From Amphiscolops sp. MND2022 (Eukaryota): 64,000 nucleotides of DNA. Positions 9,985 to 64,000 of this stretch are shown here, piece by piece. Each line of letters starts with the position of its first letter. Position 1 is the first letter of the stretch. Made by a program: the position numbers and the translations under genes. The notes under the pieces are model-generated. The model saw only the letters and a list, made by a program, of their open reading frames with translations. It searched no databases and had not been told where the DNA came from. The stretch is taken from positions 24,490,001 to 24,554,000 of the forward strand of contig OZ076414.1 in assembly GCA_964187785.1 (NCBI GenBank), given 5' to 3'.

Positions 9985-11042
9985 ATGCACAATCTGCAAT
10001 TCAATCTTGAAGACAGCTCTCTGCTGTCAATCCAATCGCCCAGTATCATCGATGTATCGAGCGACTCTGAAGAAGAGTTTGTTGTACAACCAAGTAGTCT
10101 GCCGAACATAGAAGAAAGATTTAGAGTCGATGGACCGAGATCGAATATGATGACAGCGTTTGTGGGCGCAACTTCTGCAACTCTGTTCGCATCGGAACCT
10201 GAAGATCCTGTAGTAACTGAAATAATCGACACTGCTGGCACCCAGATCGAGCGTCAAATGATGGATTTCATTGAAGAACACCATTTTAGTAGGGAATCAT
10301 CGCCAACTTCCTTCATAGATACAAAACTAGAAGACTGACCAATGTCCCCTTGGGATACGACCGAGCCAATGGGAATCTCAATAAATAGTTACGGAAGGCC
10401 AACAGCTGCAACTCTTCCTACACCCAGGAATACAAATCAGGCGCCGCCAGCAGTTAACAGACCTATACCTACGTTTACAACTATTTTTACAACCAACAAT
10501 CTCGATTTCCAAGCTCAACAACTAGTCGACCACGGACATCAACATACACATAGAATTTTGAATGGCATCAATACGAACGGGGTAAATCTGAATAGTGCCT
10601 TCACCCCCATTCCTAACAACTTGCCAATGTACAACAATGCTCCACTAATGATACAAATACCGCCCCATGAAGGTAGCCTTCACATCCCTCGGTTGAATGG
10701 GGACCCAACCTTGTGCCGACCCACCACTTCCCATTTCATGTAGGGCACAGCACAAACCTGCTGCTTTTGCCTCTTCAAGAGAGACAAATGTACAGACTCC
10801 TACCCACTGTCATGCCTAACGTCGCTGGTTTCTGCGATTGGTGTGGAAAATGCTACGACTTGATTGCATTGGAGACTCTGGGGGAATACCTCGTCGCTAC
10901 CGCCTACGATGGGGAGACAGTCAGGGACAGGGGTGTGAGGTCCCGCGCCTTCATAGATGGGTTCGAGGCTGCACTGTTCTCTTTTAAAGGTGCAGGACTG
11001 TCGCAGCCTCATGGGTGCTCGGGGCCTGTTGTGCAAGAATGA
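9985..11042 (+). pseudogene. ORFX of element A (unknown accessory protein), one in-frame stop and one frameshift
   Basis: ORFs 9985-10338, 10342-10743 and 10713-11042 join into a homolog of the intact 352-aa ORF at 53917-54975. Confidence 0.88.
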
Positions 11043-32982: not shown

Positions 32983-33029
32983 AGCCACGTCATCCTCCTC
33001 AATCACACAAAAGTGAACCCACTTACACA

Positions 33030-40300: not shown

Positions 40301-42019
40301 GTTCGAGACTCCAACTGCATCTCGGACCGCAAGCAGTTACTCCAGGAATCCAAACTGCGGATTACTCCTTCAAAGTCTGCCTGATTGAAGTAACATACGA
40401 TGATGTCACAAAGCCACAGGAACTGTGACCCAGCGATTGACAGTTGAGGACGGAGATCACTCGCCATCTCCTCTTCCTCTATCGGAATCCTCATTTCCAC
40501 CGAAAGGCACAGCGTCTATTCTAAACACACGGGAGGCTCAGACATACTCTCCTTGCGGATCCTGCGATCTTCGGCGGCACTCACAAGGCGACAAAATTTG
40601 TCGAGCAGACGTCGTTGTATTATGCTCCTATATTTCTGCTCGATCCAGGTGTACCCTGTTCTCTTCCAATGATCCCACAGGGACGATAGACTACGACCAG
40701 CGATACTCAAGTGGACGCGGCACAACAAGCACCGCGCAAATCCATCTACTACGCGCTTGTGACGCGGGAAACCGACAAATGTTCAGACAATGCCGGAGAC
40801 GAAGTGGGACGGCTTCAAAATTTATGCCTTTCGACATCGTTCTATAACACAAACACAACAACTAGTATGATAAGCTCACGACAAGGAGTACACATAACAA
40901 TACTAGACACTACAATGATCAGTGATGCAACCAACCGTCAGGGACACAGTTCGTTAAAACCACCAAAAAAATTCGAAAAAACCTTACGTAGGTTTATTAC
41001 CCACCGACTATAGTGAAAACGTAGCCCCAGCTAGGCCTAACTTAGTTTAAACCGTACCACTAAAACCCCTTACATGGTCTAATGAGTTCTTACCAGGTCT
41101 TGACGAACCACCACCACCAACTGCAACAGACGCTGTAGACCCGCCCAGAGTCCCGAGCCGATCCAGACGAGCGTCAACAGTAGCATTCACCAGGCCAGAC
41201 ATTTCGTTAGACAAATGAGTGACGACAGCTTCCAAATTTTCCACAGTTGCTAGTCGATCACGCGACACTCTCATACAGAAACCACACATTACCCCAACCG
41301 GGACTCAGCCTATCTACACGGGATTGGCAACAACGACGCTGCTGCCTCCACAGCATGCGTCCAAATACAGAACGCCCCACGACTGTCGAAGATACTCAAA
41401 TACAGTAACTACTATATACCTGTTTGCCTTATTAGAAAGGCCTCCAACTGCTCTCTCAATTTTGGTACAGCGGCTGACGACGTTCCTGACACATCATCAG
41501 TCCGACCGACCAACCGTCGCAGTGCGGCCACAACGTCTTCTCAGTTCAAATTTTCTGCAACACAACACCAAGAAATATACTTATGGCAGATTACTCCAAA
41601 CGAGCATGTGTTTTCCCGGAAAGTACATCAGATTAGAACGACACCGAACCGCATCCGTCTTAAACAACTAAGAAATTATGTGCAACGCTCGACAAATTAA
41701 AATGAGGAAGACTCACAGAGAAAAACACTACAGAAGTAAGGCAAAAGAAAATGAGAAGTCATAATGGATACTACTTACGGAACTCATCAGTCAGTACCAA
41801 TTCCAGGAAGGTGTTGAACGTTTCTGAACGGACCGAAGGAAACAGTCCTGCAAAACGACAACACGTAGGAACCACGGCTACATCAGTCGACCCAGCTTCT
41901 ACCTCGCCAGTAAGGTCCGCTTCCTCTGAAGATAACACCCCAACTTCCTCAACTGGATCCCCTACGATTGACAAAACAATGGCGACGATCTCTTCGTCTG
42001 AAGGATTGATTGCAGACAT
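37343..42019 (-). pseudogene. Antisense multi-exon cargo gene of element C, distant homolog of the A/B cargo
   Basis: Finger CLLCRVHLSIAGRSLSSLWDHWKRTGY (~40730-40650). ILEYLRYRLR..LDRLPYL matches ILDFLLMKLR..LQNLPIL. FDP and DVISLWL..EIREVLELVCGICL match the last exon. GT..AG introns at equivalent positions and phases. Confidence 0.72.
39022..39572 (+). mobile_element. Helentron-like element inserted in an intron of the C cargo gene
   Basis: Starts AACAAGCCGAGAATGGCCAAAGTCGGCG, ends TAGTCGGGCACATTTTCTACTAAAATGCGCCGACTAAA; GGGGGACCCTT internal repeats. Confidence 0.75.
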
Positions 42020-42597
42020 CAATAAACAAAGACACAAAACTCTGAAATTAATAGTAAAATAATAACTGTGTTGAAGTGTACAATTGCAATATACCAAGAT
42101 TCAACGCCCCTTACAATGATCTCGTGGACTGATCAGCCTCCTTATCTACGATAAAGGGGCATCTACCCGTTACAAAAACTGTCAAAGTTCTGAGAACTTC
42201 ACTCATTCAGCTACCCCAATTCCAAACAACGCCCGCGTTCAAAGTGTATTCATATCTAATGCTCTACTTCGAATAATCCGAACAACAAACATTCGTTGCC
42301 ACGAAGCTTTATTTCCGGTTCATTCAACCTTACTGCAAACTCTCTTTCTACTAACTCAGCGCACGATTGGATGGCGTGGCTATTGACGTCACGATGACAG
42401 AATAAATACTTCAACTGACTCAAATCAGAAAGTAAAGCAATGCCTCCGCGCATCACTCTCATTGATAACTACACCATTCGTATTAGCGCATTCACGCCTT
42501 CTGCTAACTACGAAAACCACATACTTGACGTTTCCGCCTCAACAACTTGTTTCTCCAGCTAATACCTCACATACCCCTATGCTCCACTCTTTCCTTC

Positions 42598-42609
42598 AAG
42601 GACGGGAGG
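42598..42609 (+). promoter_or_regulatory. Polypurine tract of element C
   Basis: AAGGACGGGAGG immediately before TGTCATG at 42610. Confidence 0.6.
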
Positions 42610-43917
42610 TGTCATGCCAGAAGCATGATTAGTATAATGGAAATACACTGATGTTGGCGAAAAGACAACACCAATCAGCATTACCTGCGGAAAATGCAAC
42701 TAAATGGGAAAAAGACACAGTTGATCACCCCCCACCACATGGACAACACTTCATCAGAAGTAGTTACTAACAAGCTTAACAACAACGTTGTCTACCGTAC
42801 TACATCACGCCGACCACGACGCTACCAAGAAATTGGAATACCGGAGATTTAATTGCAACACTGTCAATTATACTACATCAAATATGATGGATGGCTAATA
42901 CAGAGTAGAATTGACAGCAATGCTGGCAGTCAAATTGCATGTCAAAGCAATCGAGAAGATGCACCTAAACATTTTGAACTTAAACCCACCAAATAACACA
43001 CATAGTTAAATGCAATAATCTATACAAGATCATTCAATATTTATGAACTACTACTGCGTGAGGACGGGCCTATCCCATCATTACCATTATCCAAAGTGGA
43101 GTCATTTTGTAAAATAAGTATCGTTCATACCAAAACGTTCATCATATACCATGGAAGAGTGCTTAAAACACACTTAGCTTGTCATTAGTGATTCAAATTT
43201 ATTCCACGTAATGACGTTCATACACCATCATCGTAATACCATTTCACTTATTCAAATTACGCTGTAACAGCAGTTGATGGTTCATGTAACTATAGCAACA
43301 TACTAGCTTTTTATTACACAACGAACACTCAATTGCGCAATTACTTGTATGACGCGCCAATTAACACCTACCCAAGAGTGCAGTGCTATTGGTCATCTCA
43401 GTCACGTGACGTTTTCACGTGACCAGCTTTGGTGAAGTTGGTAGGTGTTGAAATACAGCCATTACATTTTTGGTATACTCTAACGTAACGTTGCTTACTA
43501 CATCAGTATTATACTGCGAGATACACATTTTTCGAAAACATTACAATACTTATATTTCAAACTTAATTCAAATCTTAAAACGATCAGTTGTACTTATTGT
43601 AAAAACTTGATCCCAGAATACAAGAATTGAAACTACCGATACTGCTAGAATGGAAGGATACGGTGACAACGAAAGCGAAAGTAGCTTTCCAGAGGTACTT
43701 TCTAGAGACCAAATAAATGATTTCGCTAGAGGTGATTTACGCGGTCGCAGAACCGACTCCGGACAAAATATGGTTGACCAAAGGTTCTCAGAAATGAATA
43801 AACAGATCCGTGATCTAACTAGCCTAGTGCTAGTGTTGACAGAAAAGTTATCCTCTACCAAAAGAGAAGGGAACGGACTACTAACTGCATCTAATGCACA
43901 TGAGACCCGTTCAGACA
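42610..43917 (+). repeat. 3' LTR of element C
   Basis: TG..CA termini (TGTCATG...TCAGACA); homologous to 30662-31816, including the gag N-terminal ORF remnant. Confidence 0.8.
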
Positions 43918-44875: not shown

Positions 44876-47800
44876 CTACATTAGGACAGCCTTGTTGCAG
44901 ATTTGGGGCACTTCGTCAGAGCCATCGGGACAATGTTTGACGTGGTCACAAAGTGCAGTTGTGGGCAGGCAGCGGGTTCCATCCACACACCAGAACTCGC
45001 CCACTCGACAAGGGTTCTCAGGCACGTCCAGCTCTCGGTTGCAGATGAGCTCGTCCGAGAAATCCCCGCAGTCTCGCACCCCGTCACAGCAGGCAGAGAT
45101 AGTGACGCATTGGTACGAGTGGGTGCACATGAACTGTTGGGCGGGGCATGTGGTCTCAATCTGCGGGGGAGGCAGTTCGCAGTTGAACTCGTCGCTGCCG
45201 TCGAAGCAATTTTTGTGCCCGTCGCACACTTGGCTCCAGCGCAGACAGCGAGAGTCGTCAGGACACATGAAGCCCTTGCACTGGTCGATCACAGTGCAGA
45301 AGCGGCCCTCGTCAGCTCCATCGGCACAATCGAACCTGTCGTCGCACAACTGGTACAGTTTCACACAAGACCCATCAGTGCACATGAATTCGTCAGTGTC
45401 ACAACTCGGCGCAGCGGGAACTTTCTTGGGCTTGCAGAAGTCGGCTTCGTCTTCTCCCTTTCGGCAGTTCCATACTCCGTCGCACACGAAGCGGTAGTTG
45501 ATGCATTTGCCGTTGTCGCACATGAACTCGTTCCTGTCGCATCTGGGTGCTTTGGGGCGGGGTCCTTCGGTTGGGCAGAAAGATCCTTCGTCCTCACCGT
45601 GTCTGCAGTTTTTGTAGCCATCGCAAACTTCCTTTTCGGGAATGCAAGACCCATCTGCACACGTGAATTCACCAAGAAGGCAATCGGGTTTAGGCTCAGG
45701 TGGAGGAGGAATCGGCTCACAGAAGTCACCCTCGTCGTTACCTAAAATAGTGAATTGAATCGAATTGCGTACGAATTGAAAAGCAATTTGTGCATGATCC
45801 AATAATAACGAAATTTATACGCTAACCATCTTTGCATTGCCAGACACCATCGCACACAAAAACTTTGGGAATGCAAGATCCGTCGGTGCACACGAACTGA
45901 TCAGCCGCACAGATTCTAGGGGGAGGAACAGGGGCGTAGGTTGGGCAGAAGTCACCTTCGTCTTCTCCCTCTATGCAGTTAGCTTTTCCGTCGCACACCT
46001 TAGCATGGGAGATGCAACTTCCATCGATGCAAGTGAATTCGTCGGCAGTACATCTGGGTTTCGGGGGCTTTCTGGTAGCCATGGGTTCACAGAACGATTC
46101 CTCGTCTTCCCCGTTTTGGCAATCCCATCTTCCGTTGCACACGTGGGTGTTGGGAATACAGCTTCCGTCGTTGCACAAGAAATGATCCACATCGCACAGA
46201 GGAGCAGGGATGGGAGAAGGGGCTGTGGGACAGTAGGATCCCTCGTCTTCACCCATTTCGCAATGCCATCGTCCGTCACACACGAAGATCTGTTGGATGC
46301 AGCTTCCATCAGAGCATGTGAACTCGTTGTTCCGACAAGGCAGAGGGGCGGCTGGAGCGGGAGGAGTTCGGCAGAAGCTGGCTTCGTCCTCTCCCTTCTT
46401 GCAGTTCCACTTGCCGTCGCACAACCAGGTCTGGGGAATACAGGCTCCATCAGAAACGCACATGAATTCGTTGGTAGCACAAGTAGGGGGTCCAGGAATG
46501 GGTGCTGGAGTGGGACAGAACTCGCCTTCGTCCTCGCCGTTGCGGCAATCGTGGTTTCCGTCACAGACCAGGTTCAGTGAGATACAGGACATGTCAGCAC
46601 AAACGAACTCGTCGGCTCCACACTTGGGTCCTGGAGGGGGTGGGGGAGGTTCGGTGACGCAAAAGTCAGCTTCGTCCTCGCCGTTGGAGCAGTGCTTGAT
46701 TCCGTCACACACCAAAGTCACAGGGATGCAGGATGAGTCCGAACACCGGAAGTCGTTTGCTCCGCAGATGGGCGCTGGAGGAGCGACCATCTCAGTGGGG
46801 CAGAAAGCACCTTCGTCCTCGCCACCAGCGCAGTTGTGCTCACCGTTGCAAAGGTTTTTCAGGAGGATGCACTTGCCGTCGTTGCACCTGAATTCATCCG
46901 TGTTGCACTTTTTGGGAGGTTCCGGTTTGGGAGGGGTACAGAAAGCAGCCTCGTCCTCGCCATAGATGCAGTTCCATTTTCCATCGCATACGCAAGAAAC
47001 TGGTACGCATTTTCCGTCAGTACAGGTGAATTCATCGGTGGTATCGCATTGGTGGGCGGGCAGAGGCGGCAGGGGCTCTGGACAGAAGATACCTTCATCC
47101 TCGCCGTTTTTGCAGTTCCATTTTCCATCGCAGACCTTCTCGGTGTCCAGGCAAAGACCGTCGACGCAAATGAATTCGTCGTGCATGCATTTGGGTTTCG
47201 TAACATGGATAGGCTCGGGCACATCGCAGAAACTTCCTTCGTCCTCGCCTCTGGGACACTGCTCCATTCCATCGCAAATGCAGTGTTCGGGGATGCAAGT
47301 TCCGTCATTGCAGTGGAAGTCGGTCAGAGAACAGTCTTCAGGCAGCCGCAGAGGGGGGTTGATGGGGCAGAAGGTGCCCTCATCTTCACCTCGGGTGCAA
47401 TCAGATCTAAAACGCATTCAGTGTAGTTAATAAACACATTCAGTGTAGCTAATGATAAAGTTAAGCTGAGGTAACTTTTCAGAGCCATTTTCTGCATCGG
47501 CAACTGGTTCAAAAGTTCAAACCCAGTAATGAAAGAACTTACTTATGGTCACAAACAAGTTTGATGTCGATGCATGTGGTATCCCCACAGTTGAATTCAC
47601 CAGGCTGGCATTTGGGAACTTCCACGGGAGCCTTGGTAGCACAGAAGTATCCCTCATCTTCGCCATTAGCGCAATCATGTCTTCCGTTGCATACAAAAAA
47701 CGCGTCCAAGCATGTTCCGTCGTTGCACGAGAACTGGTTGTAGGCACAGGGCGCATCAGTCACGGGCCCAGGGGTTGTGGGACATCCGAGTTCATCAGAT

Positions 47801-48365
47801 CCATCTGAGCAGTCCTGGGCGTTGTCACAGACCCTCCAATCGGCAATGCAGGTGTCGTCGTGGGTGCACTTGAACCCGTCACAAGGGGGAGGCGTCTGAA
47901 CTGGACAGTCGGCTTCGTCACTTCCGTCCGCACATTGTTTCACTCCGTCGCAACCGGTTCCAGCAACGCATTGACCTAAACCAAAGTTTACCATGTTATA
48001 CATTCCATGTTGAATGTCGACAATTGCGCTCAAGGTTACCAACCGTTGGCGCAGATGAAGTCATTGGGTCCACAGATGTCGGCGGGCACTTCTGGCTGTC
48101 CGCACGTGTCTTCGTCGCTCGAGTCTTGGCAGTCGACAATCTTGTCACACTCGAAGCGAGCAGGAATGCAACCCCCGTCGCGGCAAGTGAATTGGTGCTT
48201 CCCACATTGTCTACTGCACTCAATGCCTGAAAGATGAAAGACGGTTCAGTTTTTGCAACTTCGTGAACTAAATGACATCCTATTCAGTTGATGAATGATG
48301 AACTTACCAATGATGACACTTATAAGCAGAAGCAACAACTTCGGATCTATCCGAATGTTTCTCAT
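44876..48365 (-). CDS. Secreted protein of ~1039 aa composed of 22 LDL-receptor class A (LDLa) repeats with Pro-rich linkers; 5 exons
   Basis: Exons 48365-48308, 48226-48044, 47975-47543, 47406-45827 and 45741-44876 (3120 nt, phases 1,1,2,1, all GT..AG, no stops). Signal-peptide-like MRNIRIDPKLLLLLISVIIGIEC; six-Cys repeats ending D/E-x-D-E; no TM, EGF or YWTD segments. Confidence 0.92.
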
Positions 48366-50725: not shown

Positions 50726-52145
50726 ATTTGATTGATGTTGTGATTCAACATTTTGTGATAACTAGTTTTTATTTTTAGTGATTCATAGATGAATTTTAAT
50801 TGTTAATTTTCACTCATCGGATATCCCTTGTTTTTTTATGGTTCCAGGCTGATCATAGACTGGATCATATATGTCCAGAGTATGGTCAGCCTGGAACCAT
50901 AAACCTGTATGGTCCAAAGTATGATCAGCCTGGAATCATACTTTGAGTATGATGGCAGGCAGAGTATGATTGACCTGCTTTTGTATGGGAGAGAAACACG
51001 GGAAATCAAAATATAGTTTGATTGACTTGTTTGTAGAAGTTGAAGCAACGCAGTAAAAATAACGTAAAAGAGAAAGAGGAAACTAATTCCTCAGGTAAAT
51101 GTTTTTTCCGGAACTGTCCTATCTCTGTTACCCGGCTTCGTTTTTCAATACTTTTACATAAAAAATGAATTTTATATAATAGCAGTCGGTTTACTGCTCT
51201 GCGCCTTTTTAACCTCAGTCAGTGTTTACGGGCAGTTTTTGGTTATTCATCACATGGTCTGGGTCACTCCTTCCTCAACTGCTACGACATGAAAGCACCT
51301 ACCAAGCGAGGTCCCAACCAATTGAGCAGTGTTGCCGATCTATTCCCGCTGAGAAGGAAAGACCGAAGAGCCCTTCATTGAAATAGTTTCAACTATTATA
51401 AAGTGATTTGATGTATAAAACGCGACACTGATATGTCCCCATTTTTTGGGAGCTGGTCTTCGCGAGAGTGAGGGCAAGCTTTCGTACACCGCATTTGCCC
51501 CACACTAAGTGAAGAAAGTATTTGGAGGCAACTATTACCAGCTCCTGGTATATGAAGTACGGTAATCGATAGGACCATCTACACATGTGTTACTTATTGT
51601 TTGTGTGCATAAACAACAGTGTGTAGGTAGTAACTAGGAAGGTTATAAGTCACTTGCTTTAATACCGATTGACCTAAGTTCATTTTCGAGTCATTAGGAT
51701 TGATATTTATAAGTCAAATGACTTAAAAAATAGTGTTGTGAATTATTGTACAGCTTATTGGTGACTATTCATACAGCCAACTTTACAAAAGAGGTCTCAA
51801 ACAGCAGACGAGGTTTGAAATTATTTGAAGAGGGCGGAAACATGTTTGTTGTAAGGCACGGTCGCTTCGCTTGTCAAAGTTTTTAGTAAATGGTCACTTA
51901 TTATCGTATGGCTGAAAATCATTAGGTTGAAAACGCGTGACCGATTCTGTCGAACTTATCATTCTAACGTAGTCAGCTATGTTTCCATACCTCTAGTGCA
52001 CTTAATGCAGGATCCAAGCCAAGCGGAGGGACGTGCCATTTCGCCATGCCTCAAAGTTTTAATTTAAAGGGATTGTCTTGGGTTGAGCCTTCTGGTAATC
52101 GTGACAGATGGAGTATAGATTACCATCACCGGCGGACGCCTGGGA

Positions 52146-52479
52146 CACTAACTAAAGGATAAATATACCTGAGCAAATTTTGCTCGAAATCAAGAGACAA
52201 CTTACACTTATTTCTAATTTGTTTGTAGTTGTGAGTCGATGTAATAGATCCATTTTTGTGAAGAGAAAAGGTGAAGTGGGGCAAGATTAGAAGCACAATA
52301 TTGGCAAACTAATGCCAAAATATGGTCAAACACAGCTGAAACATTATGGTCACAAAGAGACACAGCAACAAAGGATTCTGAACGATTGACATTGGGATTT
52401 TCTAGCTGAAAAAATCAACGTTTGAGTAATTGGCCCAAAACAACAGAAACAGTTGGTAAAAAGATTTGGCTTTATCAAC
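52146..52479 (+). repeat. ~335-bp direct duplication, copy 2, ending at the insertion point of element B
   Basis: Homology to 50389-50725 stops exactly where the B LTR terminus begins. Confidence 0.9.
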
Positions 52480-53241
52480 TGTGATATTCCTCCTCCTCAG
52501 AGTCTTCATTTGAAACTATTGTTTCATTTAGTTCGAATCTATTTTGACAAAATGGTTTTGCAGGGTTCCTTAGTTCGTGCATATTTGATGCTCTGATAGG
52601 GTGACTATCTTCGTTTTCAGAGTCTGAGTTGTCATTTACTGATGCGTGAACTCCTATAGACCTATCTCTGGATCACGAGGGCTGGGTGTTTTGCGTTTCA
52701 TTTGATTCAGACCTCGGATTTGTGATTGTAGATGCGTTTTTGCTAGTTTTGATTTCTTTTAAGATCGCTTCAAACTTGCTATCGATTTCTTCTCTCATTT
52801 GCCCTATTCTGTCATTGTTTCTTTTCTCCATTTCTTGTGTCCAAACTTGAATCTCATTACTGATTAGACTGGGTTCAGCCAATTGATTTTCCAAGGTGTT
52901 GGGACCTAAATTTTTTTGATCAACCAAGTTAGAATTAGTTAAAGTCATATTACCTGGGTTTGGGGTCTCTACATTCTCTTCTCTGCTTGGAGAAGGAGTT
53001 TCCAACCTTCTAGACCTTCTACTTCTCTTGTTTCCCATTTTGCTCAAGTGAAAATGTATTTCGGTTGCTGGGAAGAATTTCAATTATCTTTTGGTATCCC
53101 AAATCCAAAGAAGGATCAATATAGTCAAAAGAAAAGTTTCACAAAGGACGGAAAGGTTTACAGCAACTGTTTTACATAAGGTAGAATTGATGAATGAATG
53201 ATTTCCAACACTAGATACTCCAGAAAATTAAAAGCATGACA
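52480..53241 (-). repeat. 3' LTR of element B (alternative start ~53300), containing the gag N-terminal ORF MGNKRSRRSRR
   Basis: PPT AAAAAGGGG (53250-53242) then TGTCATG; ends GAGGAGGAATATCACA at 52480. Confidence 0.75.
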
Positions 53242-53489
53242 CCCCTTTTTATCGCAATCATCATCAGAAAAATATAAAAATAGAATTTCATCATCATGAC
53301 ATCAGGTTATATATATCTCGGCTACATGACTTTCAGGAGAATAAGCAGGACCCTAGAAGGCCTGGAAACAGCACAAAATGACGTATGAAGTTGTATTAGT
53401 GGTTGGAATTCTCAATACATTAGAATGATACAATGAATGGACAATTAAAGCGAAAAACGTACAGTAACGAGTATACGCTACTTCTCGAA

Positions 53490-53628
53490 CCGCGTAATGC
53501 CGCATAGTAAAAAGTGCATAGTGACGAGTATACATTATGCTTTAATCCGTAGGATGCCGCATAATTCAATTACGAAAAACGCATACTTGCGAGTAGTCAA
53601 CATATCTCAAACCGCATAATGACGTATA
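53490..53628. repeat. Phased array 3 of element B
   Basis: CCGCGTAATGCCGCATA (53490), CCGTAGGATGCCGCATA (53547), ACGCATACTTGCG (53579), CCGCATAATGACGTATA (53612). Confidence 0.7.
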
Positions 53629-53916
53629 GTCATTAGCACATATGATCATTTGATGATGTCATATCTCAAAAGCGATATCAAATAGAAGCCAATTAGTCAT
53701 TCAATGTGATTTTTGGGTATAAATGTCTAAGTTTTGGCTACGTATGACTTTCCTATTGCTCGCAAACAACTTCATTTATGAAAAGCATCATTAAAAAAAT
53801 TTGCATGACTATGGTAAACTAACAAATAAAGTTTTGAAAGGTGTTTGTTCAAGTTCTTCAAAGTCTATTTGCCATGATTTCTGGGTGTTGATATTGTCGC
53901 TGCTCACATTCATCTC

Positions 53917-54975
53917 TCATTGCTGCACTACGGGTCCAGTACAGCTGTATGGCTGGAACAGTCCCGCTCTTTTAAAGATGAATAGGCCAGCTTCAAAACC
54001 ATCTATAAACGCTCTAGAGCGGACTCCACGGTCCCTAACAGTTTCACCATCGTAAGCTGTAGCTGCAAGATAGTCTCCAAGGGTCTCCAACGCTATCTGG
54101 TCGTAAGTTTTGTTGCAGTACTCGCAGATGCCGGCCACATTAGGCATGACTGTTGGGAACAGCCTACAGTTGTCTCTTTCATTGATTGGCATGTATAGCA
54201 CGTTAGTACTGTGTGCTACAGTAAAAGGAAATCCAACTTGTACCATTGGGTGTATTGGGATTGGTACCCTAGGTAGTATGTCCGGAACTCCTCGTGGAGG
54301 AAGTTGAACCACTAAGGGGGTTGTGTTTGACACAGGTGCCCTCTGGATCTCATTGTAATTGGGTAGGATTAGCACACTCGCTTGCCCCTCATCTTGGCCT
54401 GCATTTTGTGTGACGTTTTGCCCATTGTTTACACTCCTGTCCCAGGGGTGGAAATCTGAGGAATTGGGATGGTGGTTTGGCGGGTAAGTTGGGATTATTT
54501 GACTCGCGGCGTCAGACTGGTGTTCGGCATTTCTTGGGGTAGGTAGGATTGCTGCAGCCGGGCGACCATAGCTATTCAACCTGATATTAATATCAGGGTT
54601 CGGATCACTTGAGGGTTCGTTTTCCAGCTCCAATTCGCTATCAATAAATGAAGGGAGCGAAGACGGAGTGGGCGGCAGATCCTCTTCAACTAAGTCCATT
54701 AGTTCCCTTTCAATTCTCGTTCCTCGGACGTCTATTGTATCTTGAGTAGGCATTTCGTTTTCTCCCATGGGGAACAATAATGCTGTGGTAGCCCCCTTAA
54801 ATGCAGTCATAGGATCTTCTCCTGTCGTATTTACCCTGAACCTGTCCAGCAATTGAGGTACATTTCCAGGCTCGACGATGAATTCGTTATCTGAATTGCT
54901 TGAGATATCGATAACGTCGGGTGACAGAGGCGAGTACAGGGTATCTTCTTCCATGGCAAATTGCAAGTTGTTCAT
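53917..54975 (-). CDS. ORFX, 352-aa accessory protein of unknown function (SIM-like N-terminus, disordered middle, conserved CxxC C-terminal domain)
   Basis: Intact ATG ORF homologous to 9985-11042, with many synonymous differences in the C-terminal domain. Confidence 0.88.
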   Translation of the reverse strand: MNNLQFAMEEDTLYSPLSPDVIDISSNSDNEFIVEPGNVPQLLDRFRVNTTGEDPMTAFKGATTALLFPMGENEMPTQDTIDVRGTRIERELMDLVEEDLPPTPSSLPSFIDSELELENEPSSDPNPDINIRLNSYGRPAAAILPTPRNAEHQSDAASQIIPTYPPNHHPNSSDFHPWDRSVNNGQNVTQNAGQDEGQASVLILPNYNEIQRAPVSNTTPLVVQLPPRGVPDILPRVPIPIHPMVQVGFPFTVAHSTNVLYMPINERDNCRLFPTVMPNVAGICEYCNKTYDQIALETLGDYLAATAYDGETVRDRGVRSRAFIDGFEAGLFIFKRAGLFQPYSCTGPVVQQ

Positions 54976-55844
54976 CTTGTGAATTCTTGAGAAATTTCAA
55001 TTTGGAATATTATTTTGCAAGTTTGAAAATCTGTGTTTTCAGGCGACTAGTTTGTGAGTTTGTGAAGACCAAATGGTGTTGGTTATTTCGCTTTCTTCCT
55101 TCCAAGGCAAGGAAAACCCGCGAAAAAATTGCTTGTCATGGTCTGATCTCCCAAATCCCCTTATAAGGGTTTCTTTCAGGCTTCTGATCATGAGACACGT
55201 GGATGATATCTCGTAAACAAATTCCTTTTTAGGTGTTCCACTTTTCTACATCACCTTATTTCCTCTCATCAGCGTCCTTCACACCGTTTCATCGGAGTTT
55301 TAAATGATACATAAACAAATTTAACCTAACATCAAAGTAGAAAGAACGAAAATGTGATTTACAAGATGTGCCAAGTTTCTGAAACTAAAATATATTTATC
55401 CGAAATTGCATGACTGGAAGCAAAGAAAATATAAATCATTAAAAAGGGGTTCATATTAGTCAAATCATGTTCTAAAAGAGCTTTAACTGCAAGAAGCGTT
55501 TTGTTTTGTTTTAGTCCCGCACTTGAAAAGTGCGTATGGTTCTGCTTTTCCATATGATTTCAATGGAACAAGTGAAATTTAGGATGAAATTACTTAAAAA
55601 GAGTTTCTTCCTGAGATATCATATTAATTTCCCAATGACACATTAAACCTCGTTCGAAAAGAGCAATAAATGCATACATTCTATGCATATTCAATAACAT
55701 CAGGAATTCATTTGTGATAATTAACGCGTAGTTTCTTCAGTTTGTTACATAATAATGATTCATTCACACAATATTAACATTGGTTCATCTCTGTGGACAC
55801 ATACAGCGAGAACCGCAGGATGGCGAGTATACGTCATTACTCAA

Positions 55845-55965
55845 TCCGTATAATGCCGCATAGTCTTCAGCTGGCAATTCCGCGTACTGCCGCATACTCA
55901 TCACTGCAATTCCGCATACTGCCGTATACTCGTCGCCAGTCGATCCGCATACTGCCGCATGCTCT
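55845..55965. repeat. Phased array 2 of element B
   Basis: TCCGYRTAMTGCCGYAT units at 55845, 55879, 55911 and 55944. Confidence 0.82.
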
Positions 55966-56378
55966 CGCTTACTAAATCATTCCAATCAGCATAGAAACGA
56001 TGAGAATGAATACACACTGCTTTTAGATGTCCTAATGAGTCAATCAATCACGCTGGCAGACGTAATTGACGTTTGGACAGCCAATCAAATTACAGCATTC
56101 TCTACGCATCTTTGCGCTTAATCATTCCATTTGCCTTTTTGCCTTCTTTGGTTACATTAACGCCACGCCTTTGTTGTATCAAATTGATTGATCATACAAA
56201 CTTTATTTTAATTTTCAAGTCACATTTATTGCTTAACGCTCTAGTCATAGTTAACAGTCCAGTTTTAGTTGTTCTTTTCCTCTCCATCCCTATCCCTTTC
56301 CAAGGAAGATTACTATTCGTCTTGCTTGTCCTACTTTAGTTGTTGGTTTAGTCTCCTTCTTTTCCTTTTTGGAAGAAA

Positions 56379-59300
56379 ATGGATCCATGTCAAGGTGAAA
56401 GCCCCGGGGAGAAACAAAGATCAAGAAAAGATCAAGCTCCGCATTTTCGTGGAGGAAGAGACTACAATCCGACGTTCTGGGCTGAGCCTGGTAAGTTCAA
56501 CAAATTCAAATTTAGATTTATTTCGATTCATTTTATTAATTGAGTTTTGCAAAGCTGGCCAGGCAGTGCAAAATGAAAATGATCTAGATGCTTATAGAAC
56601 ATTTTCCAAATTTTTTCGAAACGTTTCCGTTTCTAATTTCTAAGCAGCTTCCGTTTCTTCACTCATTTCTTAGTTCCGCGTCCGGAACTAAACAAGAATG
56701 AAACGACTTCCGCTTGAGGTATCCGTTTCCTTTAAATTTTGGTAACAGATTATTGTTTTAGTTGAACTCAGATCAAATCCAGTTACGCCGACTCGATCAC
56801 CATTAAACACTTATGCTTCACTTAAAGCAGCCCCAACAGGTTCTACTAATCCTCTTTCCAACAACGAATCCCCAGTTACTCACCCGCTTCAGATTGACGA
56901 AGGAATAAAGGTTGTGAGTGCACCTCTAAGTCCCAGTCCAGGAGTGACCATATCTGTTACTACGGATGGGGAAAAACTAGAGAGAGATCAACCTAGCTCG
57001 TCTAAGCCAATCAGTTCGGAAACTATATCAACACCGGAGAAAACTATGAATGAACCGCAGTCCAGTTTCGCAAGAGAAATGCTTGAGGAGTTTATTACCC
57101 CTACGACATCTCAAAACCCTCCACCTTGTTACAGTGGACAATTGATGGCGCCTGACCCGACCATACCAGGCATTGGAGCTTCTACCCTTATTCACCAGGT
57201 GGAAGAATCGTTTGACGCGACCCCCATGGAATTTCAGGAAGTAAGCCGAGGAATCACGATCGACCCTTGACTCACTGATGTGGGTCACCCCAACCTGAGC
57301 ATCACAAAGCAGGAGGTTTTGGCCCTAACTAACGTTTTAAGCCGAATACCACATTGTTTCCTCACAGGGGAAGAGCCTAACCCAAACCAGGCGTTGTCCG
57401 TAACAGTAGTGGACGATCTCGCCCAACCCCCTGTACTTACCACTTCCAGTCAGGAAGAGACTGCAATGCCATCTACTTCCGGGGGTATATCTCGACAAAT
57501 ATTAGCGTCGGGACCGTCGTTCCACGGGAAACGAAGGCGACCAAGATACTCTCTAACACTTGGTATGTTAAAGAAGCATCCCATACTAAAGTTCTCTGCC
57601 ACTGGCCCATTGGATGCAGAGGTCAATCCCTACAAGTGGTGGTGTAGGGTATGCAGAACTGAGCTGTCCCTAATGAGTCGGGGGAGTTTGGAGCTCTTAT
57701 CTCACTACCGTTCAGACAGTCACCTGATCAAGGAGCATCGCATCCGAATGGAGGTTCCCGGAACACCTCTATATGATAAGGAAGGTAGAGAACTCCTTGG
57801 GATTGCGCTTCAAGAAGCCAAGAAAACAGCGCGGAAGACTCACCCTATCGCGCCACCGTTAGACAGGTGCAGGCCACTTGTTGGACAAGCTACTGTTCCA
57901 GAACCCAACGCTGTAACAAGCCCTACTGAGAAGGTTCTTTTCCAAATTAGTATAATCGAACACTTGCTCAGACACGGCGGCCATATCACAAGTTTAATTG
58001 GGGTTTACGAAGGACTGTCCCAATTATCCAGCTGTAATCAATTGTCAACCCAGGATTGGTCTGACCAGAGGCTCTTTGTAAGTATCTCATACTCACTTCT
58101 TCTCAATAGGCTTCAATGGTTGAGGTTTCGTTATTATCGTATGTCTTCCATTTGTAATCAACTAAGCTTCCCATGAACAATACAGTCAACGAGGTTTTCT
58201 CATTTTGATTTGTTTTAACAGGGGATCTTGATACACATTTTCAGAGAACTGATGAATTATTGTGTCACTATGGTTACGTCTTCTGCCGTGTATTCCTTGG
58301 CATTGCAACACAAAACCACAACCTCCTACATTATTCTACTGTTTTGGTCAGGAAACGTCTTCCACCGTGTGTGTCTTGGGAGCTCGCCCCGAGGAATGTT
58401 ACTTCCACGCAAAGTTCTTAGTCTCGTTTCATCATTTCTTAGCCTGTTCGAAATTCCTCCATCTTGCCTTACGCTCATCGGAGTGGGAGAGAAATTAGAC
58501 GACTGCTTGACCTCTTCCCTACCGGGCAGTAAACGGCCTTCAATTGTTAATCCCTTTGGTCCTCGCGAGCTTGAGACCAGCCTTGCACTTCCCACTGCAC
58601 AAATAATTGAACGGCACGACTTCCGTACAATCCTAGACTTCCTCCTAATGAAGTTACGAACTGCCTTGGGTAAAGACTGGCTACAAAACTTGCCAATTCT
58701 CCACAAGGTACTTTATTTTTCATTAATTTTCATCATTGAAACACTCAATTTTCGGTATTTAATTTTAGTCTATTCTAGTGTGTACTCCGACTAGAATACT
58801 CCCTCAGTGAGGCCTCCACTATCATCGAGAACCTGTCAAACCAATGGGATCGGGTTAAAGAGCACCTGAATCAAGTTGCGCGACTACCAGCTTACCGCTT
58901 CCACATGAGAGAAGTAATCCTCATTTTATCTCATGTTATCCGTACTATACAAATTTTGGAAGTTGTATATGTATACTTGTTTCAGCCAAGTACCTTAGAC
59001 GAGTGCTTCCGTCTGGACACAGCATACCTGGCCAGACTCTTCGTCATCCGCTGTGTACTCGATCACTGTAAGTTATACAGTTGTTTAGAGCTTTTGTTAT
59101 TTTACTCCAACTCATCAGTATTCTTCTGATTTATATTCCTGAGATAACTTAGGGTAATTTGCTTTAGTGCTCATAATTTTGATATACCCGTTCAGTCTAG
59201 TTTTGCTTGGTTGTATTCAACACGTACTGGCCATTATTCTTTGCTGATTATATTTCTCAATCCTTTTGTGTTTTTGTCTCTTGTAACTAAGTTGTGTGTG

Positions 59301-60781
59301 AGCGCGTAATCGTTTCTTTCCAGTTCGTACTCGCGCATTGAACTTCCTGTGCGATTCCGCATAGTGACGCATAATCATTACGTCTCGTTCCGCACAGTGA
59401 CGTATACTCGTCACACTTCATTCCGTATAGTGACGTATAGTCTCTACACCTTGTTCCGCATAGTGACGTATAGTCGTCACACTTCATTCCGTATAGTGAC
59501 GTATAGTCCTTACACCTTGTTCCGCATAGTGACGCATAATTTCATTCCGCCATTGTGGTAGCAGTGTTCGCAGCTAACGTATATCCACACGTGTAATACT
59601 ATGCGGTCCTTTTGCAGTAAGGTTTGATGCTTTATTACCAGTTAATTAGAGTTTCTTGTTATATTTCAGATAACTCAGCATTCTCCGAAGTGCAGAAACA
59701 GGTGGAAGGTGGTTTCCGCTTATTTAATCAATATGCTGTTTTTACCTACAGCCAACTTCAAAATATCTTGCCCGACAGTGCACTGGGAGATATCTCTGAT
59801 TGGGATAATTTTTTACACTTGGACATGGATCAACCGGATTTACCGTTCAAAACTTGTGATGAGTTTGTTCTAAACGAGGATTTTCATCGTCTGGTTATGG
59901 CTAGTAGGCTGCCTCGTCCTAGCAAATTCGTGGAACAATCCATATCCTTTTGTAAAGCTTTTTGTAAGTTGTTACTTCGCCACGAAATTGCCAAATCGGA
60001 CTTGATCAGAGGTTTGTCTGCTTTTGATCCTGCTGTGGTTTTTGAGACTCCTGAAAGACATTACACTACCGTCATAGAAACGTTGTCAACACACTTTGTC
60101 ACTTCTGGATGGATTTCGGCCAGTGATAAGGTGAAGATTATCAGCCAATACCGGGCTTTCGTGACGAAAATGCGTGCCAGTGCTGTTCCAGAGTATGATG
60201 ATTGGATCCTCTATTTGTCTTCTAATTACGAGATGCAATGTCGAACCGAGTTATTTCTTCTGTTCAAATACTCATGCTTATGCCTGCCCCCGTTGGTTGG
60301 GATGCCGCCCGAAGTCATTATCCTTATTATTTCAAACTTGGAATCTGATGTTGATATGTTCCGGTCATGCCTGCGGAGCTTGCAAGCTTCCTATTTAACT
60401 GTACCCCACGTCTCGAGTTTATACCGAGATCCACGCGCTATTCCCCGAGTTTTTCGTCTCTTAGGGAGGGGAATGGACTTGCTGTCCGATAAAAAGTTCT
60501 CGGTTTGGAACTTTCTAAAGGGCAGTGGGCCAAGGAGAGCGTCTTTGTTGGGCAAATTGGAAACTGGGTATAGGAAAGCTGTTCTTCGCTCGGAGCGGCC
60601 TCCTATTTCATCCAGCAGTACTACCCCTAGTGTGAGTCGACACAGTAGCGTCAACAGCACTCCTTCTCCCGACCCTTCTCTGAGACGGGTTAATTTGGAA
60701 GTTCGCCGATGTGGCACAAGCAGTTCGGAGGATGTTTCGAAAAAGTCAAAGGCTCCAACTGGGAAAGAAAAGAAAAACTAG
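56379..60781 (+). pseudogene. Antisense 6-exon cargo gene of element B (~1080 aa; BED-type finger plus hAT-like body); one in-frame TGA at 57268
   Basis: Exons 56379-56490, 56762-58077, 58222-58707, 58779-58913, 58986-59067 and 59670-60781; phases 1,0,0,0,1 join in frame (3243 nt). NLS-like KRRRPRY; finger WWCRVCRTELSLMSRGSLELLSHYRSDSH. Confidence 0.85.
59357..59536. repeat. Phased array 1 of element B: six CCGYAYAGTGACGYA cores every 33 bp in cargo intron 5
   Basis: Cores at 59357, 59390, 59423, 59456, 59489 and 59522; spacers alternate in a 66-bp higher-order pattern. Confidence 0.92.
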
Positions 60782-60996
60782 AGGATCATCTTCATTTATA
60801 GTTTTGTTTATGTGTATTTCCTTTTTATTTTGTCTCTTTGTTGTATATTCTGTCACGTATTCACTCATTTGACAGATGGGTCATCATAAAGGCCTCCTTT
60901 ACTCCCTGGTATGTATTAAAGAGAAGGGAGGAAAAAAAGATTTTTCGTCTGAGTTTGTTTTGTTGTGTATATAAGTCAGAGTTTGAAGGTTATTCT

Positions 60997-63900
60997 TTAG
61001 TATCTATATGAGTCAGAGTAGTTTGGGTTAGGATTAGGACGTAAGTTGTATTTTTCACCACGGGTATTTATGGGTTCTTCTTGCAATGGGGTATTTTGGG
61101 AATTTTCTGGGGTTTTCTGAATATCATTGTCTGTTGAAGTATTTGTATCTTTTTGGGTTTTTTGGGTATTATTATCATTTTCTTCATTTACTTGTTGTGG
61201 AGTTTCGTCATCATGATTTTCGTGGTTTTGATCTTGTTCAGTGGTCTGTTCCACTGGGCTCCCCCCACTATTTTTTGAAATTTCGAGGGAGGGAGGGTGG
61301 TTATTTTCGGGTGATGTAATGGGTAGGTATTCAATATCTTCGGTATTTTGTGAGTACTCTGGAGAGTTGTCCTCAAACGGATTAGGGCCGAAATTTGTAT
61401 TCCAAGATTGAGCATATAGATCATCTTGCGTTATCGGCAGTTGGTCATCTTTCTGCCAATCAGTTTCTCGTACGAAAATGTTTGCGAGAGGGGCTTGGGG
61501 GGTAAACTTCCTCAAGCGAATTCGATGCAGAAGTTGCGTCTTGTTAGTTCCTAAGCGTCTAACTATGTAGTTATTGTTAGGAAGGACTTTCTCAACTTTA
61601 CATGGGCCTTGCCATCTAAATTCTCGAAAAGGTATCTTTGTTGCCTGGGTATCCGCCTTCGGGTTTAGGACGTAACAATAATCCGTTGTTTCAAGTGGTG
61701 ATGCCTTTGCTTTCCTATCATAATATGCTTTGTATTTGAGATAGGATTGCATTATGTTCTTTTTGGTTTGGTCAAGCAGTATTTTCATTCTTCTTTGTAC
61801 TTCCTCTGCTACATCTGTATGTGGTAGGTATTTTGGGTTGTATCCAAGCTTGTAATCGAGTATGTTATGGGGTATTCGCCCACGAAATACTCGTGAAGGC
61901 TCACAACCCAGTGTTGCATGGTAAGTAGTGTTGTGGTTTAAGACTGCTAGCGGGAGAAACCTATGCCAATTGTTTCGAAATTCCTCGGTGGCAGCTTTAA
62001 GATGCGTTTTCACTGATGCATGAGTTCTCTCTAGGATTCCATTGGTTTGAGCGTGTTTCATCGTTGCATGCTTGAGCTCAATTCCTAGAACTGCGGCTAC
62101 TTCATGTGTGACTTGGGCATTGAATTGTGTGCCCAAATCCGTAATTATTGTAGTTGGTAGATATGTGTGTTTGCAGAGGATATCCATTATTACTCGGGCT
62201 ACAGCAGAAGCTGTAATGCGTGTTACTGGGTATGCAAACAAATACCTTGAAAAAACGTCTATCGCTGTGATTATGTGATCATAGCTTCCACTTGGAGGGA
62301 GATTGGGTAGGATGTCCATTTGAAGAATGTCTTCTGGACCAAGGTCCCATTCTGGACAGTTGAGAAGTTCCGTTCTGAGAAGATCATTGTTGATCCGTTT
62401 GGTTTGTATGCAAATTTGGCAATTGGTGACCCATTTTTTGACGTATTTAGCAATACATGGGTAATAGTAATTTTGTCGGGCTTCTTGAATCATCTTCGTA
62501 ATACCTGGATGGTTTGAGTTGTGACCATGTAGGGATTGAAGAAATTCTTCTAGAAGTTGAGCCGGAAGTAGTATCTGGTAATGGGAAGTGGTTCCCGTGT
62601 CTGTATAGTACCTGCGGGTGAGAACTTCTTGTTTGATTTCAATTCTAGCGATATTTTGAAGATAATGGTGGTATCTATAGTCAGATGCCAACTCGTGTTC
62701 ATCAAAAGGATGTCCTTCTATTTTTGCTCGTAAATTTCTGAGTACAATATCGTTGTTTTGTTCTAAACGAATCTTCGCATTGTCTCGGAAGTGACCTTCC
62801 GAACAAGTCTTTAAACCAGAAGTAGGTTTATGGAATTGTTGGAGTTCGGTTATGTTATTTTCTGGTTCATTGTGTGTCTCGTTTTGAGCTTGGTCTCGGA
62901 TGTTCTGCTTCTCTTGCCATAATTGGTTTTCATCTAGTTCATCATCGGGGAGGATGTAAATCTGCTCTTCTTCTACGATCCCTGATGATTGTATGTTGAC
63001 TTCAATTGCTTTGGTGTGTATGTCATTTCGAATGGTCAGTTCAAGTTTTTCAACTGGATTGACTTCGGTGCGTGAGAGGAAGTCAGCTGCAGTGTTCATT
63101 GATCCCGCAACGTGGGCGATTACAAAATTATATTGTAAAACATAATCGCATGCATTCCAAAGTGCCGGTGGGATAAGTTTTGCTTGAAAAAATCGGAATA
63201 CTGATCTATTATCGGTGAACACAATTACAGGGAATGTGCTTCCCCACATGAGGTGTCCAAATTCAACAAAGGCAAAATATATGGAAAGGAATTCCTTGGC
63301 ATATATAGACATTTTTGTTTGTGTCGGGTTGAAAGTTTTGGAACCAAATGCTATGGGAGCGTATGTTTTGCGTTTTGATTGCAATTTTTGGTTCGGGTCG
63401 TCTTCTATCATAATGGCATATCCCGCAGCAGTAAAGCTGGCATCAGAAATGATTATGAGCTGTTTGTCTTTGAGGGGTTGTTTCAATGCTAATTGGCATG
63501 AATTTTCGAGGAGTTTATTGAGGTTGGTGAAATCCTCTACTAAGTTTGTTGGCACATAGAATTTGGATGTTTCCTTGAGAAGTTTAAAGAACGGAGACAG
63601 CCGTTCTGAGAGTCGTGGAATGTAGTTGCGATAGTAGTTTAGGAAACCTATATATCGCTGGAGGGCTTTTTTGGATTTAGGAAATCTAAGTTTAGACAGA
63701 AAGTTTTTGACTTTTTCTGCTTGCGGGGCGACTCCTTCAGGTGTGATTGTGCGTCCCAAGAAGTCAACTTGTTTGACGCCAAAGTGGCATTTGGACATCG
63801 TAAGTTTAAGGCCAGCATTTCTGATGCATCCGAACACTGTTCTGATGTTGGCGCATAGTTGCTGGGCATTATTTGCAGCGATGCCAATGTCATCCACGTA

Positions 63901-64000
63901 TTGGGCGCACTGGTCTGCTTTGATTGCTTTATCTAGGTACTCTCTCATGAAACTAGAAAATGCTGAGAGAGATCGGCTTAGGCCTTGCGCTAGTCGTCTA
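60997..64000 (-). CDS. pol: Gypsy pol, open from RT palm through RNase H and integrase (N-terminus outside window)
   Basis: Uninterrupted ~1000 codons: LAQGLSRS, QYVDD, RNase H SDASF..KEF..FTDN, HHCC, D-D-E core, WQGPC and terminal KYNLRPNPNPNYSDSYRY. Confidence 0.97.
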   Translation of the reverse strand, partial: RRLAQGLSRSLSAFSSFMREYLDKAIKADQCAQYVDDIGIAANNAQQLCANIRTVFGCIRNAGLKLTMSKCHFGVKQVDFLGRTITPEGVAPQAEKVKNFLSKLRFPKSKKALQRYIGFLNYYRNYIPRLSERLSPFFKLLKETSKFYVPTNLVEDFTNLNKLLENSCQLALKQPLKDKQLIIISDASFTAAGYAIMIEDDPNQKLQSKRKTYAPIAFGSKTFNPTQTKMSIYAKEFLSIYFAFVEFGHLMWGSTFPVIVFTDNRSVFRFFQAKLIPPALWNACDYVLQYNFVIAHVAGSMNTAADFLSRTEVNPVEKLELTIRNDIHTKAIEVNIQSSGIVEEEQIYILPDDELDENQLWQEKQNIRDQAQNETHNEPENNITELQQFHKPTSGLKTCSEGHFRDNAKIRLEQNNDIVLRNLRAKIEGHPFDEHELASDYRYHHYLQNIARIEIKQEVLTRRYYTDTGTTSHYQILLPAQLLEEFLQSLHGHNSNHPGITKMIQEARQNYYYPCIAKYVKKWVTNCQICIQTKRINNDLLRTELLNCPEWDLGPEDILQMDILPNLPPSGSYDHIITAIDVFSRYLFAYPVTRITASAVARVIMDILCKHTYLPTTIITDLGTQFNAQVTHEVAAVLGIELKHATMKHAQTNGILERTHASVKTHLKAATEEFRNNWHRFLPLAVLNHNTTYHATLGCEPSRVFRGRIPHNILDYKLGYNPKYLPHTDVAEEVQRRMKILLDQTKKNIMQSYLKYKAYYDRKAKASPLETTDYCYVLNPKADTQATKIPFREFRWQGPCKVEKVLPNNNYIVRRLGTNKTQLLHRIRLRKFTPQAPLANIFVRETDWQKDDQLPITQDDLYAQSWNTNFGPNPFEDNSPEYSQNTEDIEYLPITSPENNHPPSLEISKNSGGSPVEQTTEQDQNHENHDDETPQQVNEENDNNTQKTQKDTNTSTDNDIQKTPENSQNTPLQEEPINTRGEKYNLRPNPNPNYSDSYRY

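Follow-up and report, generated by a model that had tools for sequence, protein, structure and literature searches.

The window analyzed here comprises 64,000 nucleotides of DNA from Amphiscolops sp. MND2022 and contains ORFX, an open frame encoding a 352-residue protein (53917..54975, minus strand) that is conserved family-wide under purifying selection and is an accessory gene of element B, a Ty3/gypsy LTR retrotransposon of ~16 kb. The assignment of the carrier is based on its TG...CA LTR ends, a 5-bp target duplication, a gag gene and the PR-RT-RH-IN order, with domains identified by Pfam. Its 5′ LTR, read in locus L031, and its 3′ LTR (52480..53960, minus strand) are 98.3% identical. The end of the reverse transcriptase, RNase H and integrase are encoded at 60997..64000 (minus strand; Pfam); in L031, protease and gag follow outside the window. 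Pol is followed by an antisense multi-exon gene on the plus strand, then by a spacer, ORFX and finally the 3′ LTR.

The 3′ LTR begins within ORFX codon 339, directly after the purine tract, and in the 17 loci compared this junction falls on the corresponding G-[LV]-[SF] codons. Since the last 14 ORFX codons lie inside the LTR, part of the conservation of the protein tail is at the DNA level, and G338-L339-S/F340 are partly constrained by the purine tract and the LTR end. The LTR of element B is coding at both ends, with the ORFX tail at its start and the head of gag at its end: the gag frame opens within the LTR and runs on across the primer-binding site (window 52480-53038, minus strand; L031:1895-3613). 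A weak match to the tail of the ORFX domain at 52062-52151 (minus strand) probably marks where a further LTR begins next to element B.

A second copy of ORFX, in element A (9985..11042, plus strand), is broken by one stop at 10336 and one frameshift near 10690, and the 3′ LTR of that element starts near 10998. A third gypsy element at 30670-43917 is decayed, with LTRs 86.5% identical; its long gap between pol and LTR holds different frames (e.g. 37808-38548, minus strand, no Pfam match), and a search of this element with ORFX returned no match. Exons at 44876-48060 (minus strand), probably of a host gene, encode many tandem Cys-rich repeats separated by proline-rich linkers, which we take to resemble LDL-receptor class A units.

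A conserved accessory gene and its neighbors

To place ORFX beyond the two copies in the window, its own genome was searched. Of 4,884 candidates, a figure not to be read as a copy number, 115 were scored and gave 116 matches at ~50-100% identity. Divergent queries reached a second deep clade, whose integrase is ~62% identical to that of element B. The order integrase, antisense zinc-finger gene, ORFX was found in 38 of 40 ten-kb loci; of the two exceptions, one had been cut on the wrong side (L086) and the other lacked an integrase within range (L107). Open frames of at least 280 codons were present in 95 of 106 fetched loci with an ORFX match and absent from 11, a ratio that is no measure of decay because many loci were picked for being open. 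The resulting set comprises 77 distinct frames in 27 subfamilies at 80% identity, with 27 representatives (19 from clade 1, eight from clade 2). In a 50% protein library, ORFX had 192 matches, and the ENA or JGI records of those homologues that were looked up held no annotated name. Three of them (P0129, P0127 and P0094) had no close copy among the scored own-genome candidates and are probably from other organisms. ORFX thus belongs to a Ty3/gypsy LTR family as a resident accessory gene and is more than a peculiarity of two copies.

The earlier note had proposed strong purifying selection from a 23-residue block, located outside the LTR, that is the same protein in copy B (53989-54057) and copy A (10902-10970) even though 16 of the 23 codons differ, all synonymously and at 19 nucleotides. 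This comparison held, and pN/pS across copies (our own Nei-Gojobori counts) confirmed the selection: among 20 B-family copies the ratio for the whole frame was 0.21, falling to 0.07 in the part of the C-terminal domain outside the LTR and to 0.03 in the 23-residue block. When subfamilies are compared, synonymous sites of codons 1-338 prove saturated, yet the protein is conserved. Synonymous divergence drops in the LTR-overlapping codons (pS 0.46 vs 0.80), placing the last 14 codons, including a third conserved cysteine, under double constraint.

The antisense gene (56746..60781, plus strand; exons inferred from open frames, with a stop near 57270 in the B copy) encodes a C2H2/BED-like zinc finger. 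Its C2H2/BED matches are weak, an Atlas feature lead of 0.90 points to zf-C2H2_12/FAM200-ZBED5 clusters (hAT-derived proteins), and its last exon had no match. The gene sits in an exchangeable cassette at about 56180-60990. Among element B and 22 further B-family copies (L089, L090 and L121-L140), 21 carry a full antisense zone, which occurs in five types with sharp boundaries; in comparisons with B, nucleotide identity is ~65-69% inside the cassette and 92-98% in the pol flank. Exchange occurs in clade 2 as well, where L084 and L088 are 99% identical in the integrase and 95% in ORFX, compared with 25% in the finger exon. As the antisense type swaps while the pol flank stays constant, ORFX travels with pol and the LTR and is not tied to any one antisense allele, an observation that speaks against tight co-evolution of the two genes. 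The idea that the cassette is a nested DNA transposon was not supported, as its ends have neither terminal inverted nor direct repeats. Short tandem repeats lie between the open frames of the antisense gene in both elements (59354-59544 and 5369-5548), probably in an intron.

The spacer holds a putative internal core promoter of ORFX (55110..55170, minus strand), with a TATA-type box at −190 followed by CATGAC and a T-run-CGCGG block. A TATA-type box 176-210 bases upstream of ORFX is present in 13 of 19 clade-1 representatives (2.2 expected, with the interval set after seeing the data), and CATGAC and the T-run-CGCGG block follow it in most of them. Clade 2 has no TATA at that position; other short motifs, read by eye, are common to its members. 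ATGCGG-type repeats, identified by repeat count, cluster in the spacer between ORFX and the antisense gene (55820..55970) and in the U3 part of the 3′ LTR (53480..53630). Across 25 clade-1 loci their density was 2.8/kb in the spacer and 4.1/kb in U3, compared with 0.8-0.9/kb elsewhere; the repeats are absent from clade 2. A generic test of 8-mers shared by spacer and U3 was no better than the control, so that only the specific ATGCGG count, in clade 1 only, stood out. From the antisense gene between pol and ORFX, the clade-1 TATA-type block and the ATGCGG repeats, we infer an internal promoter from which ORFX would be transcribed on its own. Spliced-leader trans-splicing, reported for a related acoel (PMC9911081), may offer an alternative route to ORFX expression. 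A search for RNA records carrying ORFX listed none, which is no evidence for or against its expression.

Motif, lysine desert and C-terminal domain

A SUMO-interacting motif (SIM) consists of a hydrophobic ψ-ψ-x-ψ core with adjacent serine or acidic residues. ORFX fits this pattern at residues 21-32 (54880..54915, minus strand), where a hydrophobic core is followed by Ser-Ser and an acidic tail with S-x-x-D/E sites. The earlier note had read the motif in two copies and made its proposal depend on conservation in more of them. The ψ-ψ-x-ψ-S-[SG] core is in fact kept in 74 of 77 open frames, the misses being two point changes and one truncated frame. Core plus at least two following acids was found in 26 of 27 representatives, compared with 0.22 expected from shuffles; representatives were chosen with a preference for motif-bearing members, a choice that affected the B cluster alone. 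All 27 have both serines unchanged and carry S-x-x-D/E. Control disordered regions of the same elements lacked the motif (0/24 antisense regions, 0/31 pol tails).

Within the N-terminal part, this motif is the one clearly common to the two deep clades, whose flanks can scarcely be aligned; weak alignment is also seen for a short helix near residue 89. Between subfamilies, pN of the SIM region (0.21/0.20) is as low as that of the folded domain (0.15/0.22) and far below that of the clade-1 middle (0.53), and conservation thus exceeds that of the flanks at this depth. Among the 20 B-family copies the motif region has a pN/pS of 0.33, a noisy value from 13 codons that is not below its neighbors at such depth. 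Database proteins of at least 255 residues with the full domain carry the motif in 45 of 59 cases; inspected by eye, nine of the 14 misses start at an internal Met, three have a changed core and two have unrelated N-termini. Divergent homologues retain it (P0162, P0241, P0023 and P0280), and a third clade has the variant PIYLSSDE, read by eye because the search pattern excluded Pro. P0129 and P0127, apparently near full length, are without the motif. The full-length model places it in predicted disorder (pLDDT <50 over residues 2-25 and 30-33). ORFX of element B has one strict SIM match only; a second acidic-hydrophobic patch appears, with a loose pattern, in six of eight clade-2 proteins, and a clade-1 FxDSEFEE patch presumably resembles TFIIH-binding acidic motifs.

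The disordered part of ORFX is in addition a lysine desert, a feature beyond the earlier note. Residues 61-288 of the element B protein (228 residues; 54112..54795, minus strand) are lysine-free and predicted to be mostly disordered, with pLDDT mostly <50. Upstream of the CxxC motif described below, the 19 clade-1 proteins hold 18 Lys in 5,312 residues (0.34%), compared with 240 expected from base composition and 4.5% in off-frames, whereas Arg is retained at 4.4%; in control disordered regions from these elements, Lys accounts for 2.5% and 4.3%. In the non-acidic middle of clade 1, 3 Lys stand against 169 Arg, so the desert cannot be put down to charge or to a shunning of A-rich triplets. Lysine-free runs span 155-333 residues in 19/19 clade-1 proteins and 204-315 residues in P0162, P0129, P0241 and P0023. 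The clade-2 deficit is weaker (28 vs 64 expected; 22 Lys and 60 Arg in the middle), with shorter runs of 73-123 residues. A long, conserved, lysine-free disordered stretch with Arg retained was accordingly found in the family, in weaker form in clade 2. By composition the N-terminus is acidic, and short proline-rich motifs are conserved in clade 1 (YGRP-type, 19/19).

Disordered proteins of the ubiquitin system commonly have conserved lysine deserts that keep Arg, and these prevent the proteins from being ubiquitylated; such deserts also occur in viral proteins and in cases outside that system (PMC10169902). The SUMO-targeted ubiquitin ligase (STUbL) subunit Slx5 has a desert of 398 residues, for which avoidance of other lysine modifications is flagged as unexplored (PMC13696103). 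The desert is an independent pointer to the ubiquitin/SUMO system.

CEYC/CDWC, VIDISSNSDNEF and IIDVSSDSEEEF are present as the earlier note gave them, and the CxxC and the N-terminal motif read as it stated. Its claim of C-terminal conservation with a CxxC stood, and its length of ~100 residues did not, as the domain common to both deep clades spans ~70 (residues 284-352; 53920..54126, minus strand). By comparison and modeling, this domain comprises the CxxC, a helical hairpin and a third Cys at 345; the domain model (pLDDT 80) predicts a CxxC loop with two helices (291-306 and 313-336), including an Arg-rich helix. CxxC-x(56-58)-C occurs in 71 of 77 frames and the third Cys in 100 of 108 database proteins. 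The three conserved Cys suggest metal binding, with a fourth ligand not evident. In P0129 and P0114 the third Cys is missing, but their CxxC contains one Cys more (CxCC), and this residue may compensate as a metal ligand. In the full-length model the rest of the protein is predicted to be disordered except for short helices, chiefly 87-97.

ORFX had been described as an unknown retroelement protein, in agreement with what we found. Pfam gave no match for the single protein or for 34 members, the best hit of a PDB profile search had E 0.075 and identified no known family, Foldseek of the C-terminal domain against PDB and BFVD gave none at E 0.001, and ESM Atlas gave no match for ORFX. A wider structure comparison of the domain reached Z 5.5 at best (rmsd 3.1, 55 aligned), the top match being a generic hairpin. 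These blank searches do not prove a new fold. Among the 27 representatives, neither the C3HC4 pattern of a RING nor a BC-box was found (0/27 each), the former being in keeping with only three conserved Cys and a hairpin model; LxCxE, PxDLS and PxVxL patterns are not conserved, nor are PY motifs (PPxY in 4/19 clade-1 and 0/8 clade-2 proteins; LPxY in 6/19 and 1/8). A basic nuclear signal is present in only three and consensus SUMO acceptor sites in only four of the 27.

Proposed function and its alternatives

Taken together, the SIM-type motif, the lysine desert and the small Cys domain resemble proteins working at SUMO/ubiquitin ligases. We therefore propose, at roughly even odds (about 0.5), that ORFX is a putative SUMO-binding counter-silencing adaptor or competitor that acts beside ubiquitin/SUMO ligases to relieve silencing. 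An internal spacer promoter would make ORFX separately from the rest of the element, and its N-terminal SIM, probably phosphorylated by CK2, would dock on SUMOylated host proteins, the likeliest target being SUMO-coated silencing complexes on the element's own chromatin. The long lysine-free linker could keep ORFX beside ubiquitin/SUMO ligases without being tagged, while the putative metal-binding helical domain, alone or oligomeric, may recruit a host ligase or another effector, or ORFX might merely compete for SUMO sites. Silencing factors would be removed or displaced, and transcription of the element would continue.

The host has the components for such an interaction, as its genome contains SUMO and Piwi-domain genes. 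A Rad60-SLD search of the genome returned mostly ubiquitin/NEDD8-like genes and one SUMO locus (L117). The exon of this locus shares 83% identity with the SUMO named from Convolutriloba and 80% with that named from Symsagittifera, which makes a convolutid acoel the most likely host; a PINIT (PIAS) search had no match and was uninformative. Long frames at L113:955-2487 and on C11 near 57.75 Mb fuse tandem ubiquitin-like domains to a further C-terminal domain. In flies, piRNA targeting is coupled to silencing through SUMO and Su(var)2-10 (10.1101/533091), and SUMO-SIM contacts carry piRNA silencing, with an isolated SIM-flanked fragment of Sov de-repressing transposons (10.1101/2021.07.27.453956). 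SUMO-dependent silencing in acoels would be an extrapolation from these studies. Several observations weigh against the adaptor reading: there is no ligase module (RING 0/27, BC-box 0/27, PPxY 4/19), B has one clear SIM, a nuclear signal is found in 3/27, the lysine deficit of clade 2 is weaker, P0129 and P0127 are without the motif, and lysine deserts are also reported outside the ubiquitin system (PMC10169902). A SIM alone, moreover, gives no direction of effect on silencing. The suggestion in the earlier note that ORFX may engage or antagonize SUMO-dependent silencing complexes is, overall, partly supported.

The opposite direction and a direct transcriptional role were considered as alternatives. 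ORFX might be a transactivator like foamy-virus Tas or HCMV IE2, in which acidic disorder serves as activation domain, the SIM contacts a co-factor and the Cys-helical domain binds LTR or promoter repeats in a positive feedback. The enrichment of ATGCGG repeats in spacer and U3 of clade-1 loci, the internal TATA block, the acidic N-terminus, the Arg-rich helix and a 3′-LTR-proximal position as known for Tas are consistent with this model, but clade 2 keeps the domain without the repeats, the antisense zinc-finger protein is a more evident candidate for binding DNA, no DNA-binding fold was matched, and Lys is most depleted in the non-acidic middle, which retains its Arg; we consider it somewhat unlikely. 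A self-limiting repressor, whose SIM would recruit SUMO-dependent repressors to element or particles and thereby control copy number or timing, strikes us as improbable. The family is very abundant, and a lysine desert and SUMO acceptor sites in only 4/27 are unexpected for a co-repressor, such proteins often being SUMOylated themselves. In its favor, SIMs of host silencing factors such as Sov recruit repression (10.1101/2021.07.27.453956), and regulatory roles have been proposed for extra ORFs (PMC7264820).

An equally improbable role is post-transcriptional, with ORFX escorting the pre-integration complex to SUMO-rich nuclear sites or shielding particles from a host restriction factor. The lack of a conserved nuclear signal, the conserved clade-1 proline-rich motifs and the retention of ORFX with pol and LTR while the antisense gene exchanges would all agree with it, whereas no sequence link to gag or integrase was seen and expression from an own promoter would rather fit an early regulator. 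Finally, ORFX occupies the position of env, and its last 14 codons, with their reduced pS, overlap the LTR, which leaves room for an env-like protein or for neutral cargo held open by DNA or RNA constraints near the LTR. This explanation, highly improbable in our estimate, is largely refuted by the pN/pS pattern and by hydropathy: codons 1-338 are synonymously saturated and yet encode a conserved protein, most of the model is disordered, and the highest 19-residue hydropathy in the 27 representatives is 0.78-1.44, below the usual transmembrane level of ~1.6. The earlier note's statement that ORFX is not env is thereby borne out, the signal peptide being judged by hydropathy alone.

Relation to known systems and significance

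Foamy virus Tas/Bet, HIV Nef and the HTLV antisense gene lie near the 3′ LTR, and ORFX shares with retroviral accessory genes a position at or overlapping U3, a putative internal promoter and an antisense partner gene; unlike them, it comes without env and had no sequence or fold match in BFVD or PDB. STUbLs usually carry several SIMs. HSV-1 ICP0, KSHV K-Rta and yeast Slx5-Slx8 are like ORFX in combining a SIM beside serines and acids, a long disordered body and a small Cys domain, whereas ORFX has one clear SIM, no RING and no homology to them, so that any ligase activity would be borrowed from the host. ORFX may act like a STUbL adaptor but, because it has no RING, is not a member of the STUbL family. 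By means of a SIM that lies next to phosphoserines, ICP0 eliminates SUMO conjugates, and it counters intrinsic silencing (PMC3174244). The phospho-SIMs of PML and Daxx likewise have a hydrophobic core followed by Ser and acids, and CK2 phosphorylation near the PML SIM raises SUMO affinity (PMC4276917); the likeness is confined to this short motif. An antisense promoter is known in HTLV (PMC7264820).

Extra ORFs in the gap from pol to the 3′ LTR are known from plants (PMC7264820, PMC11963269), rotifers (PMC5408684) and planarians, where those of Burro include ubiquitin-related domains (PMC6431247). Plant Retand/Grande/RIRE2, rotifer ORF3s and planarian Burro resemble the ORFX family in having family-wide extra genes at this position, and the group also offers parallels for an antisense gene, repeats, an own promoter (Grande gene23) and proposed regulatory roles (PMC7264820, PMC11963269, PMC5408684, PMC6431247). 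The acoel elements differ in being an animal family with a divergent pair, an antisense zinc-finger gene and a sense ORFX overlapping the LTR, and in the conserved SIM-type motif and lysine desert, which the available parts of those papers do not report. The missing Pfam match also means none to TRP28, DEDDy, GDSL or env models. Within the literature searched, which covered titles and abstract starts and excluded most subscription journals, there was no description of the ORFX family, of a SIM-bearing retrotransposon accessory protein or of an animal LTR retrotransposon protein engaging the SUMO arm of silencing. The main text of a metazoan errantivirus survey does not mention acoels (PMC13524379), and 'anti-silencing' was not found in a 2026 review (PMC13269885). 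These elements may be present, without annotation, in the repeat libraries that supplement acoel genome papers. ORFX is a real, selected and uncharacterized accessory protein, while extra ORFs between pol and LTR as such are already known.

In a related acoel, roughly half of the genome consists of LTR elements (PMC9911081). A bolder version of our proposal, which we regard as rather unlikely, is that an animal LTR family, in the manner of a complex virus, encodes a counter-silencing module of its own, in which a RING-less SUMO-targeted degradation adaptor strips SUMO-coated Piwi or heterochromatin factors and the antisense zinc finger serves as an exchangeable specificity cassette tethering ORFX to the element; together these would explain the dominance of LTR elements in acoel genomes. 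ORFX itself offers a small, dissectable candidate with three separable features, namely the motif, the lysine desert and a new Cys-helical domain. If the adaptor reading is true, ORFX would be a transposon-encoded analogue of ICP0 with a new ligase-recruiting fold, and would give a handle on the conflict between transposon and host in a regenerating animal.
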